Of a DNA stretch of 64,000 nucleotides, positions 45,401 through 48,400 are shown piece by piece (position 1 is the stretch's first letter; the number at the start of each line of letters is the position of its first letter). The DNA lies in NCBI RefSeq assembly GCF_053078305.1, contig NZ_CP166879.1; one strand, 5' to 3'. Made by a program: the position numbers.

Positions 45401-48400
45401 CAACAAACTGTTTACCCGCATTGAGACAATGCTCGGTATGGCACCGAATACCCTGAAAATGGGCATTATGGATGAAGAACGTCGGACCTCGCTGAACTTG
45501 CGTAGCTGTATCGCTCAGGCGCGCAACCGCGTGGCGTTCATCAATACCGGTTTCCTCGACCGTACCGGCGATGAAATGCATTCGGTGATGGAAGCTGGCC
45601 CGATGCTGCGTAAAAATCAGATGAAATCGACGCCTTGGATCAAAGCCTACGAGCGTAATAACGTGCTTTCCGGTCTGTTCTGTGGGCTGCGCGGTAAAGC
45701 GCAAATTGGTAAAGGCATGTGGGCAATGCCGGACCTGATGGCAGACATGTACAGCCAGAAGGGCGACCAACTGCGTGCCGGGGCAAACACAGCCTGGGTT
45801 CCGTCACCAACCGCTGCTACGCTCCATGCGCTGCACTACCACCAAACCAACGTACAGAGCGTGCAAGCCAACATTGCCCAGACCGAGTTCAATGCTGAAT
45901 TTGAACCGCTGCTGGACGATCTGCTGACTATTCCGGTTGCTGAAAACGCTAACTGGTCGGCGCAAGAGATCCAACAAGAGCTGGATAACAACGTGCAGGG
46001 GATTCTGGGGTACGTGGTGCGCTGGGTGGAGCAGGGGATTGGTTGTTCAAAAGTGCCGGATATTCACAATGTGGCGCTGATGGAAGACCGCGCAACGCTG
46101 CGTATCTCCAGCCAGCATATCGCCAACTGGTTACGTCACGGTATTCTGACCAAAGAACAGGTGCAGGCGTCGCTGGAGAATATGGCGAAAGTGGTTGATC
46201 AGCAAAACGCTGGCGATCCGGCTTATCGTCCGATGGCGGGGAATTTCGCTAACTCGTGTGCCTTTAAGGCTGCCAGCGATTTAATCTTCCTTGGCGTGAA
46301 ACAGCCAAACGGCTATACCGAACCGTTATTACACGCCTGGCGTTTACGCGAAAAAGAAAGTCATTAATAGCGTCAAAAAAGCCCCGGCAAGTTTTATTGT
46401 CGGGGCTATGATAGTAACTGCGGTAGTACATTTATCCCGGAAATAACCGGAGCGATTATCAGGGTTTAACAATATTAAATACCCGTAGCGCATTACTAGC
46501 GGGCCTAAAACAACAATATGGACATCTTAACGATACTCTGCGCCTGCGTGTGCGGAACAGAAACCCTTACCCGATATACTTGTTATGCCAGAGGTAGCAA
46601 TTGCGTTAGCGGCGTACTGTTGCTGTAAAGTATAACGCCTATATTTTACAGTTCAGTCCTCTTTTGCTTATTACAACCTTAAGTATATCAAGCATATAAA
46701 GATAATAAGAGACTGAACAATATGGTTACCTGGACCCAAATGTATATGCCGATGGGAGGACTGGGGCTATCCGCTCTGGTCGCCCTGATCCCGATAATAT
46801 TCTTCTTCGTTGCACTCGCGGTATTACGTCTGAAAGGACATGTTGCCGGAGCAATAACCCTTATATTATCTATCCTGATTGCGATATTCGCCTTTAAAAT
46901 GCCGATTGATATGGCATTTGCTGCTGCGGGCTATGGCTTTATTTATGGATTATGGCCAATAGCGTGGATTATTGTCGCGGCGGTGTTCCTGTATAAATTA
47001 ACCGTTGCCAGCGGGCAGTTCGATATTATCCGCAGCTCGGTTATCTCCATCACCGACGATCAGCGTTTGCAGGTGTTACTGATTGGTTTCTCCTTTGGTG
47101 CGTTGCTGGAAGGAGCGGCTGGCTTTGGTGCGCCGGTGGCGATTACCGGTGCGCTGCTGGTGGGCCTGGGCTTCAAACCGTTATACGCGGCGGGGCTGTG
47201 TCTGATTGCCAATACTGCGCCAGTGGCGTTTGGTGCGTTGGGCGTGCCGATTCTGGTCGCCGGTCAGGTAACGGGAATCGATCCGTTCCACATTGGCGCA
47301 ATGGCGGGACGTCAGTTACCGTTCCTGTCGGTTCTTGTGCCGTTCTGGCTGGTAGCAATGATGGACGGCTGGAAAGGGGTGAAAGAGACGTGGCCAGCGG
47401 CGCTGGTTGCAGGGGGAAGCTTCGCTGTCACTCAGTTCTTTACCTCTAACTATATTGGTCCGGAACTGCCGGATATTACTTCGGCGCTGGTGAGTATCGT
47501 CTCACTCGCTTTATTCCTTAAAGTCTGGCGGCCGAAAAATACCGAAACGGCAATCAGCATGGGACAATCCGCAGGTGCGATGGTGGTAAATAAGCCATCT
47601 TCTGGCGGTCCCGTGCCTTCAGAATATAGTCTGGGGCAAATCATTCGAGCGTGGTCACCGTTTTTAATCTTAACGGTGCTGGTCACCATCTGGACCATGA
47701 AGCCGTTTAAAGCGTTATTTGCTCCGGGCGGCGCGTTTTATTCACTGGTGATTAATTTCCAGATCCCTCATTTGCATCAACAAGTGTTGAAAGCGGCACC
47801 CATTGTCGCCCAACCAACGCCAATGGATGCGGTGTTTAAATTCGACCCCCTCTCGGCTGGCGGCACCGCTATTTTTATTGCGGCGATTATCTCTATCTTC
47901 ATCCTCGGTGTGGGGATCAAGAAAGGTATTGGCGTCTTTGCCGAAACGCTAATTAGCCTGAAGTGGCCGATACTGTCGATTGGCATGGTGTTGGCATTTG
48001 CCTTCGTGACCAACTATTCCGGTATGTCCACCACGCTGGCGCTGGTACTGGCGGGTACTGGTGTGATGTTCCCGTTCTTCTCGCCATTCCTCGGCTGGCT
48101 GGGGGTATTCCTTACCGGCTCGGACACTTCCTCTAACGCCCTGTTTGGTTCACTGCAATCGACCACGGCGCAGCAAATCAACGTCTCTGACACTCTGCTG
48201 GTGGCAGCAAATACCAGCGGCGGCGTAACTGGCAAGATGATCTCCCCGCAATCTATCGCCGTGGCCTGCGCCGCGACGGGCATGGTGGGCCGAGAATCTG
48301 AACTGTTCCGCTACACCGTGAAGCACAGTCTGATTTTTGCCAGCGTTATCGGCATTATCACCCTGCTGCAGGCATATGTGTTTACCGGGATGTTAGTCTC

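Follow-up and report, generated by a model that had tools for sequence, protein, structure and literature searches.

The genes of the glc operon lie almost end to end, with the exception of glcB and glcA, which are separated by 354 bp, and the question raised by this locus is what that interval does. It lies within a window (the whole stretch of DNA analyzed, 64,000 nucleotides of contig NZ_CP166879.1, assembly GCF_053078305.1) for which a first-pass annotation had suggested that the gap might host a small RNA (sRNA) or an internal glcA promoter. We tentatively propose, with slightly less than an even chance of being right, that the spacer, constrained, structured and without coding function, acts as an intercistronic control region of the glcDEFGBA mRNA, the other strand of the same DNA having been catalogued as the candidate sRNA C0719. 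C0719 is probably a cis-antisense transcript of the spacer. A control region, a stand-alone sRNA and an internal glcA promoter are not mutually exclusive.

Layout and conservation of the glcB-glcA spacer

The glc operon is located on the plus strand of the window, with the glcB open reading frame (ORF) at 44196-46367 and that of glcA at 46722-48404. K-12 coordinates were converted as window position = 3168001 - K-12 coordinate, a relation derived from the NC_000913.3 record. The ORF coordinates confirmed the 354-bp gap, and in the annotated K-12 record the remaining junctions measured -1 bp (glcD/glcE), 10 bp (glcE/glcF), 4 bp (glcF/glcG) and 21 bp (glcG/glcB), as the claim of an unusually long interval had it.

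46368-46721, both strands: glcB-glcA spacer, 354 bp, single copy, non-coding, strongly constrained

The spacer was found in 4543 of 5426 complete Escherichia coli genomes, with at least 99% identity in 3701 of those. Near and distant searches placed it at a median of one site per genome and a maximum of two, and no paralogue was detected even by a sensitive search of the E. coli genomes. The genomes devoid of the spacer also lacked the adjoining parts of glcB and glcA; thus, the spacer is lost only with the whole segment.

Outside E. coli, GlcA orthologues were few, being found in E. albertii (98% identity), in a Klebsiella/Raoultella cluster (89%) and in Citrobacter freundii (88%), followed by Pseudomonas (∼79%), where the homologue belongs to a lactate-utilization cluster without glcB. 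The glcB-glcA spacer measured 353 bp in E. albertii, 397/398 bp in Klebsiella/Raoultella and 415 bp in Citrobacter, and further Raoultella and Klebsiella contigs showed the same arrangement of glcB, long spacer and glcA. The retention of a long spacer in these lineages indicates that it is an old feature of the enterobacterial glcB-glcA junction. One candidate relative (P0034/L141) was discarded as an lldP-type locus, with yibL upstream, a protein starting MNLWQ and an unrelated upstream region.

Sequence constraint was pronounced. The spacers of E. coli and E. albertii were 95.8% identical (15 substitutions and one indel), whereas identity at fourfold synonymous sites was 72.3% in glcB and 67.8% in glcA. 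Other divergent Escherichia from metagenomes gave 94 to 96% for the spacer and 67 to 78% for fourfold sites; the metagenome scan, made with the conserved glcA start, yielded 52 contigs, all Escherichia-like, which served as a source of haplotypes and added no new genera. The spacer has thus evolved ∼7-fold more slowly than fourfold sites, and its right half ∼30-fold more slowly. Within Escherichia the constraint was uneven, positions 46368-46517 being 90 to 91% identical and 46518-46721 98 to 99% (99% between E. coli and E. albertii), and the last 93 nt before glcA were almost invariant. The neighboring glcA-sslE spacer was 72 to 80% identical (72% between E. coli and E. albertii). Conservation ended at the glcA start codon, with third positions of glcA 0.6 to 0.87 identical.

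Between genera, synonymous sites were saturated (46 to 57% identity), yet blocks of the spacer could still be aligned: the A-run with the hairpin that follows glcB; ATGGACATC-TTAA; CTGCGC..GTGTGC.GAA; C(C/T)CTTACC..ATATA; and AATAAT.AGAGACTGAA.AATATG at the glcA start. The Klebsiella and Citrobacter spacers were 69.7% identical, compared to 56 to 57% at fourfold sites.

46516-46556, both strands: cross-genus blocks ATGGACATC-TTAA and CTGCGC..GTGTGC.GAA, the second forming a small hairpin, 46537-46543/46550-46556 (alignment columns 287-306)

Conservation of the spacer is therefore several-fold stronger than that of synonymous sites, and its length and blocks persist in three genera. Few non-coding stretches of the locus are as constrained, and the spacer is older than the genus; it must therefore hold something functional, even if the catalogued C0719 RNA is the wrong description of it.

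In the 3' part of glcB (45800-46367), third-position identity between E. coli and E. albertii climbed from ∼0.6 to 0.83-0.90 over the last ∼540 nt, which may reflect extra constraint near the spacer or a recombination tract.

The hairpin after glcB marks a sense-strand 3' end and has the shape of an antisense terminator

46375-46407, both strands: A6 run (46375-46380) and GC-rich hairpin (arms 46380-46390 and 46397-46407)
46411, plus strand: published RNA 3' end of a glcB-containing transcript, 4 nt past the hairpin (Term-seq)

A weak hairpin containing a G-U pair and lacking a U-tract had been noted after glcB. The G-U pair (one) and the lack of a U-run on the operon strand were both found. 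The hairpin itself is anything but weak, with 11 pairs on the plus strand, a folding energy of -21.5 kcal/mol and a z-score of -6.2 relative to shuffled sequences. On the minus strand the same hairpin has one A-C mismatch and -15.2 kcal/mol.

A single RNA 3' end has been published in the gap, at MG1655 position 3121590 on the minus strand (window 46411), in the sheet for growth in lysogeny broth (LB) to an optical density (OD) of 2.0 (Adams et al. 2021, PMC7815308). It is labeled primary for glcB and antisense to C0719 in supplementary file 1 of that study (PMC7815308), and the same sheet also contains 3' ends internal to glcD. The hairpin 3' of glcB thus marks an operon-strand RNA 3' end under a condition in which the operon is on (LB, OD 2). 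Regarding its origin, the plus strand carries a strong stem followed by the tail CUAUGAUAGUAA, with no U-run in any genus; the tail reads CUAUGAUAG in E. coli and CUACUGCAG or UUAUUGCAG in the other genera. An end located 4 nt after a stem without a U-run is compatible with termination of low efficiency or with trimming of the RNA as far as the hairpin. The files of Adams et al. 2021 (PMC7815308) list no region of Rho termination for either glcA or glcB.

Since the A6 run precedes the hairpin on the plus strand, the minus strand reads the hairpin and then UUUUUU. The resulting GC-rich stem-loop, AGCCCCGACAAUAAAACUUGCCGGGGC followed by UUUUUU, has the shape of an intrinsic terminator for transcription antisense to glc. 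It is located 15 to 50 nt past the catalogued 3' boundary of C0719. The automated terminator scan missed it, either because a mismatch was forbidden or because the first U was counted into the stem. The hairpin and the A-run were kept in E. albertii, Klebsiella/Raoultella and Citrobacter, with a U-run of U5 in E. albertii, Klebsiella and Citrobacter, and of only U4 in a divergent Escherichia lineage (L120). Weak Rfam matches to Spot 42 and NsiR1 at 46373-46479 merely reflect the terminator shape.

As to which strand carries the conserved structure, this hairpin was more stable on the plus strand in E. coli and Citrobacter and equally stable on both strands in Klebsiella. K-12-type E. coli (T46400), lineage L120 and Citrobacter have each independently acquired G-U pairs, which correspond to an A-C mismatch on the minus strand, and the haplotypes formed a series from G-C through G-U to A-U, completed in L128. 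In favor of the minus strand, the U-run was kept in all three genera.

The Klebsiella and Citrobacter spacers contain, on the operon strand, an extra small hairpin with a T-run that is absent from E. coli (AGCGCGACGATGCGCT+TTTTT at 3694-3709, plus strand, of the Klebsiella locus L085; GAGCCTGGTTCATCAGGCTT+TTAATTT at 3815-3834, plus strand, of the Citrobacter locus L087). Partial termination on the operon strand may thus be achieved by different means in each genus.

A predicted leader hairpin pairs with the glcA ribosome-binding site

46563-46712, both strands: long imperfect hairpin, with CCCUUA (46563-46568) opposite the glcA Shine-Dalgarno (SD) region UAAGAG (46707-46712)
46623-46651, both strands: Escherichia-specific palindrome CTGTAAAGTATA/TATATTTTACAG at the tip of the long hairpin, with -10-like boxes on both strands
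46651-46718, plus strand: local hairpin GUUCAGUC/GACUGAAC (plus UCUU/AAGA), covering the stretch from the glcA SD to the AUG

In each of the four lineages, both strands of the whole spacer out-folded their dinucleotide shuffles, with z-scores (plus/minus strand) of -2.9/-2.1 in E. coli, -3.4/-2.5 in E. albertii, -6.7/-3.0 in Klebsiella and -3.9/-4.3 in Citrobacter. The fold energy was lower on the plus strand in three of the four lineages, as in Klebsiella (-152.9 versus -130.8 kcal/mol). In every lineage the distal 140 to 165 nt of the spacer were predicted to fold into one long imperfect hairpin, the base of which pairs C(C/U)CUUA with the glcA SD, (U)AAGAG or UUAGAG; the counterpart in Klebsiella/Raoultella and Citrobacter is CUCU(UA) opposite (U)AGAG. 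Further pairing was predicted in E. coli between GAUAUACUU (46573-46581) and AAGUAUAUC (46681-46689), and in Klebsiella for AUAUAUC/GGUAUAU and GGUGUGCU/AGCAUACC. E. coli additionally carries a 22-nt segment, the apical palindrome at 46623-46651 (-12.5 kcal/mol and z-score of -5.8 on the plus strand, -7.2 kcal/mol on the minus strand, hence also more stable on the plus strand) and the local hairpin formed by 46651-46658 and 46711-46718 (-16.5 kcal/mol, z-score of -2.8).

For the glcA SD region, pairing was predicted with a probability of 0.46 to 0.83 across lineages (0.72 to 0.83 in Escherichia), compared to 0.40 to 0.56 for the other five glc genes. In Klebsiella/Raoultella the long hairpin was 7 to 11 kcal/mol better on the plus strand than on the minus strand. 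For its part, the minus strand is favored by the RNAalifold register of the long helix in Escherichia, which uses several G-U pairs on that strand.

Proposed function of the spacer

On these grounds, we suggest that the hairpin after glcB would stabilize and protect the glcDEFGB messages or form their 3' end, so that the enzymes and the permease would be expressed unequally. Transcripts reading through would carry a leader hairpin of ∼150 nt occluding the glcA ribosome-binding site, by which translation of the permease would be limited or gated. On the opposite strand, the U-run would end antisense transcription before it entered glcB. The antisense transcript, a corrected version of C0719, would probably be ∼270 nt or longer, with its 3' end near 46374 and perfect complementarity to the leader; if made in useful amounts, it would affect in cis how the glcB-glcA junction is processed or translated, in a manner similar to GadY.

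A more specific proposal, which we regard as doubtful, is that Escherichia, Klebsiella/Raoultella and Citrobacter share a conserved sense/antisense module in which the leader gates the permease message and the terminated antisense RNA controls the leader in cis. Were it correct, the C0719 annotation would have been dropped too early, and the true boundaries and role of the RNA would differ from those in the catalogue. A variant in which the leader directly senses a metabolite or a protein is less likely.

Several observations weigh against the control region proposed here. Predicted occlusion of the glcA SD exceeds that of the other glc genes only moderately, and the link between the leader hairpin and glcA translation is a prediction from folding. 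Among 19 homologous base pairs of the long hairpin, counted by hand from the alignments in four lineages, 70 of 76 cells were paired on the plus strand and 68 of 76 on the minus strand, a difference that does not decide the strand; only one clear compensatory double change (C-G to U-A) was found. The Term-seq end could stem from trimming of a longer RNA and not from regulated termination, and for the conserved A-run no purpose is evident on the operon strand. As regards the antisense RNA, no 3' end on the C0719 strand is listed by Term-seq in LB at OD 0.4, LB at OD 2.0 or M63 (PMC7815308), and the Cappable-seq, ROSE, SMRT-Cappable-seq and Romero 2014 supplements contain no transcription-start entries for the interval.

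The arrangement resembles known systems. In MG1655 the gadX-gadW spacer measures 367 bp, and gadY, which runs antisense within it, has its 3' end at 16 nt from the gadX stop codon; at glcB-glcA, the spacer measures 354 bp and the U-run of the antisense terminator ends 7 nt from the glcB stop. From this geometry, C0719 is complementary to the glcB-glcA mRNA junction. GadY is reported by Opdyke and colleagues (2004 and 2011) to pair with the gadX-gadW mRNA and to direct how it is processed. GadY and C0719 share no sequence similarity, and the resemblance is an analogy and not membership.

A second likeness is to the repetitive extragenic palindromic (REP) stabilizer between malE and malF, an intercistronic stem-loop that sets unequal expression within its operon. 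The glc hairpin, just past the upstream cistron, likewise coincides with an RNA 3' end, and the downstream gene encodes a membrane protein, expected in smaller amounts. Unlike the malE-malF element, the glc hairpin is unique; its opposite strand shows a U-run as in a terminator, and another 300 conserved nt lie beyond it. With its A-run, hairpin and flanks between oppositely transcribed elements, it also recalls bidirectional intrinsic terminators, from which it differs in having a uridine run on one side only.

The C0719 locus itself is already known, so that the finding as first stated, a catalogued RNA locus in the gap, is known as well. New in this analysis are the antisense-oriented terminator, the coincidence of the hairpin with a sense-strand 3' end from published data, how strongly the spacer is constrained, its presence in Klebsiella/Raoultella and Citrobacter as well, the leader hairpin that takes in the glcA ribosome-binding site, and the rejection of small ORFs, of repeats and of a further GlcC-type site as explanations. 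A specialist would not find an antisense RNA or a structured leader surprising at this place. The status of C0719, one of the early array-derived E. coli sRNA candidates, never characterized and now missing from the reference annotation, has become directly testable: assignment of the strand would rescue or retire it, and would explain the level of the GlcA permease relative to the upstream glycolate oxidase and malate synthase.

C0719 as a possible independent sRNA

46422-46643, minus strand: match to C0719 (Rfam RF00117), 299 bits, E = 2.7e-79, model positions 1-222

The Rfam scan covered 45800-47300, and C0719 was its sole significant match, full length and with a score far above the gathering score of 50. 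In MG1655 coordinates it corresponds to 3121358-3121579 on the plus strand. Rfam locates C0719 between glcB and glcA (yghK), antisense to both. The covariance-model search suggested by the first-pass annotation gave a full-length hit, and the C0719 annotation antisense to the glc genes that it had tentatively named was correct. The match involves the same DNA and the same strand as the array-derived candidate of E. coli K-12. Compared to the RF00117 entry, the homologous sequence extends here to Klebsiella/Raoultella and Citrobacter, the Rfam family presumably covering only Escherichia and Shigella.

This match is one reason to consider that C0719 is an independent functional sRNA gene, with a promoter at ∼46645-46715 and the terminator at 46407-46374, which would target other mRNAs or glc and would be the main cause of the conservation of the spacer. 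We deem this a genuine but rather unlikely alternative. It would explain the orphan terminator, which points against both flanking genes and is conserved in three genera, and the 98 to 99% identity over the 5' part of C0719 and its upstream region. A 2012 count of 83 known E. coli sRNAs included C0719, with loss recorded for phylogroup E and some Shigella (PMC3318445), which here means lost only together with the region. It was listed as up-regulated in the transition phase in a fermentation study by RNA sequencing (RNA-seq) with an adapter-ligation kit, which gives no statement that intergenic counts were strand-aware (PMC4676190). A transposon insertion at the C0719 site reduced group II intron retrohoming (PMC3636086), whereas overexpression of C0719 gave no biofilm or motility phenotype (PMC4606813). 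The literature reached gives no characterization of C0719, nor an established promoter, end or function.

The segment comprising the glcB 3' part, the spacer and the glcA 5' part is absent in its entirety from ∼16% of the complete E. coli genomes (878/5426), in line with the published absence of C0719 from phylogroup E and from some Shigella.

The view of the spacer as host of an sRNA stands as regards the catalogued locus, and is countered by the Term-seq data, with no 3' end on that strand under three conditions, and by the current annotation. The NC_000913.3 RefSeq record contains no RNA gene in the glcB-glcA gap, while gadY is displayed in the same record. Similarly, no RNA gene is annotated there in the norW-hypF gap (NC_000913.3 2835046-2835172), which we take to be the placement of candidate C0664. 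With C0719 and C0664 both unannotated while gadY is shown, the array-derived C0 candidates appear to have been removed as a group.

Structure also weighs against an independent C0719. Its Rfam consensus structure, which the comparison neither refuted nor clearly supported, brought little covariation gain (89.1% of cells paired in the relatives versus 85.6% in shuffles, with 3 pairs showing double changes); helices 1 and 2 lie in the Escherichia-only 22-nt segment, absent from Klebsiella and Citrobacter; and several hairpins of the spacer are less stable on the minus strand. The catalogued boundaries are out of register with the structural modules, the 5' start falling inside the palindrome and the 3' boundary 15 nt before the terminator hairpin. 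The promoter-like sites are weak. No promoter above threshold was found inside the E. coli spacer by an automated promoter scan, and a cruder weight-matrix scan gave weak sites within the palindrome on both strands, of which the first two listed below are on the C0719 strand.

Start near 46622, minus strand: weak sigma-70-like site CTGAAC-16-TATACT
Start near 46635, minus strand: weak sigma-70-like site ATAAGC-17-TAAAAT
46968-46997, minus strand: sigma-70-like site TTTATA-18-AATAAT inside glcA, 246 to 275 nt into the gene

The last of these sites, located within coding sequence, is found at the same position in E. coli, E. albertii, Klebsiella/Raoultella and Citrobacter (4247-4276 in L084, L085 and L087), with the -10 variants AATAAT, GATAAT or TATAAT. 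It could drive a long antisense RNA across the spacer, or be a by-product of AT-rich codons. The original arrays are said to have probed both strands only in intergenic regions; a longer antisense RNA started in or near glcA would then have been visible only in the spacer, which could explain the odd boundaries of C0719.

A possible separate promoter for glcA

Start near 46654, plus strand: weak promoter-like site TTGCTG-16-TATTTT (weight-matrix scan)

It is unlikely, and more so than an independent C0719, that glcA has its own promoter, most transcription ending after glcB and the permease transcript starting ∼65 to 70 nt before the AUG. The sense-strand 3' end directly past glcB (PMC7815308) and the near-invariance in Escherichia of the 93 nt before glcA would be accounted for, and -10-like boxes are similarly spaced from the AUG (-60 to -75) on the plus strand in Escherichia and Klebsiella/Raoultella. 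However, these boxes scored weakly, no comparable site ranked high in Citrobacter, and the automated scan gave no plus-strand promoter in E. coli. Furthermore, the hairpin has no operon-strand U-tract in any genus, which argues against efficient termination after glcB, and glcDEFGBA has been described and treated as one polycistronic unit (PMC3265435; PMC10272880). The spacer shared no motif beyond chance 7- to 9-mers with the GlcC-controlled glcC-glcD region, and a second GlcC-type operator was accordingly rejected. Of the internal promoter put forward in the first-pass annotation, what was recovered is thus the weak -10-like boxes in the palindrome, with no motif in common with the glcC-glcD control region.

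Coding and repeat explanations

46518-46628, plus strand: 36-codon ORF, rejected as a gene (non-synonymous excess, not kept across genera)

That the spacer encodes a small protein, from this ORF or from minus-strand ORFs such as 46493-46344, is highly improbable. ORFs are present, and E. coli and E. albertii differ within the 36-codon ORF at two sites, both synonymous. In a set of 23 Escherichia haplotypes, however, this ORF showed 11 non-synonymous changes (one of them a stop) versus 4 synonymous ones, and it has only 12 codons in Klebsiella and no ATG in Citrobacter. The 49-codon minus-strand ORF (46493-46344) is frame-shifted in E. albertii by an indel in the A-run. A gene finder also called a 66-codon antisense ORF in the spacers of Raoultella and Klebsiella (L142 and L143, 1127-1327, minus strand). 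As judged by eye, its start lies at the conserved TTAAGATGTCCAT block behind AAGGAG, and the minus-strand frame opened by the conserved ATGTCC comprises 6 codons in E. coli versus 66 in Klebsiella. Since neither frames nor lengths of these ORFs are conserved, the region is non-coding.

Although no part of the spacer has an experimentally shown function, that it is mere filler without function, or the decayed remnant of a mobile or repeat element, is equally improbable given its ∼7-fold slower evolution than fourfold sites (∼30-fold in the right half), its similar length in three genera and its single copy per genome without paralogue. Elements of the REP/bacterial interspersed mosaic element (BIME), enterobacterial repetitive intergenic consensus (ERIC) and similar types were ruled out by the copy number (median of one per genome, maximum of two), and C0719 was the sole significant match to an Rfam or repeat family in 45800-47300. 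The recurrent glcA mutations of long-term stationary-phase evolution are intragenic and fall outside the spacer.

Other observations at the locus

Beyond a few enterobacterial genera, the nearest relatives of GlcB and GlcA among the matches listed belonged to Pseudomonas and Betaproteobacteria (∼70 to 80% identity), and a scan with the GlcB C terminus gave, among the matches listed, beta-proteobacterial and Pseudomonas loci with ∼70 to 75% identity. Such a scattered occurrence suggests that the enterobacterial glc cluster may have been acquired horizontally.

In one metagenome contig (L134, OHAO01009908.1), the spacer to the left of ∼46505 is replaced by GC-rich sequence with no match in the 5426 E. 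coli genomes, and the contig is probably a chimeric assembly. In E. coli PEC408 (NZ_CM168008.1, 4001-8047), an IS5-family element (ISKpn26) interrupts the spacer 47 nt past the glcB stop, at window position ∼46414 and therefore just beyond the hairpin, and glcA is replaced by other DNA that includes a type II Zorya anti-phage system.

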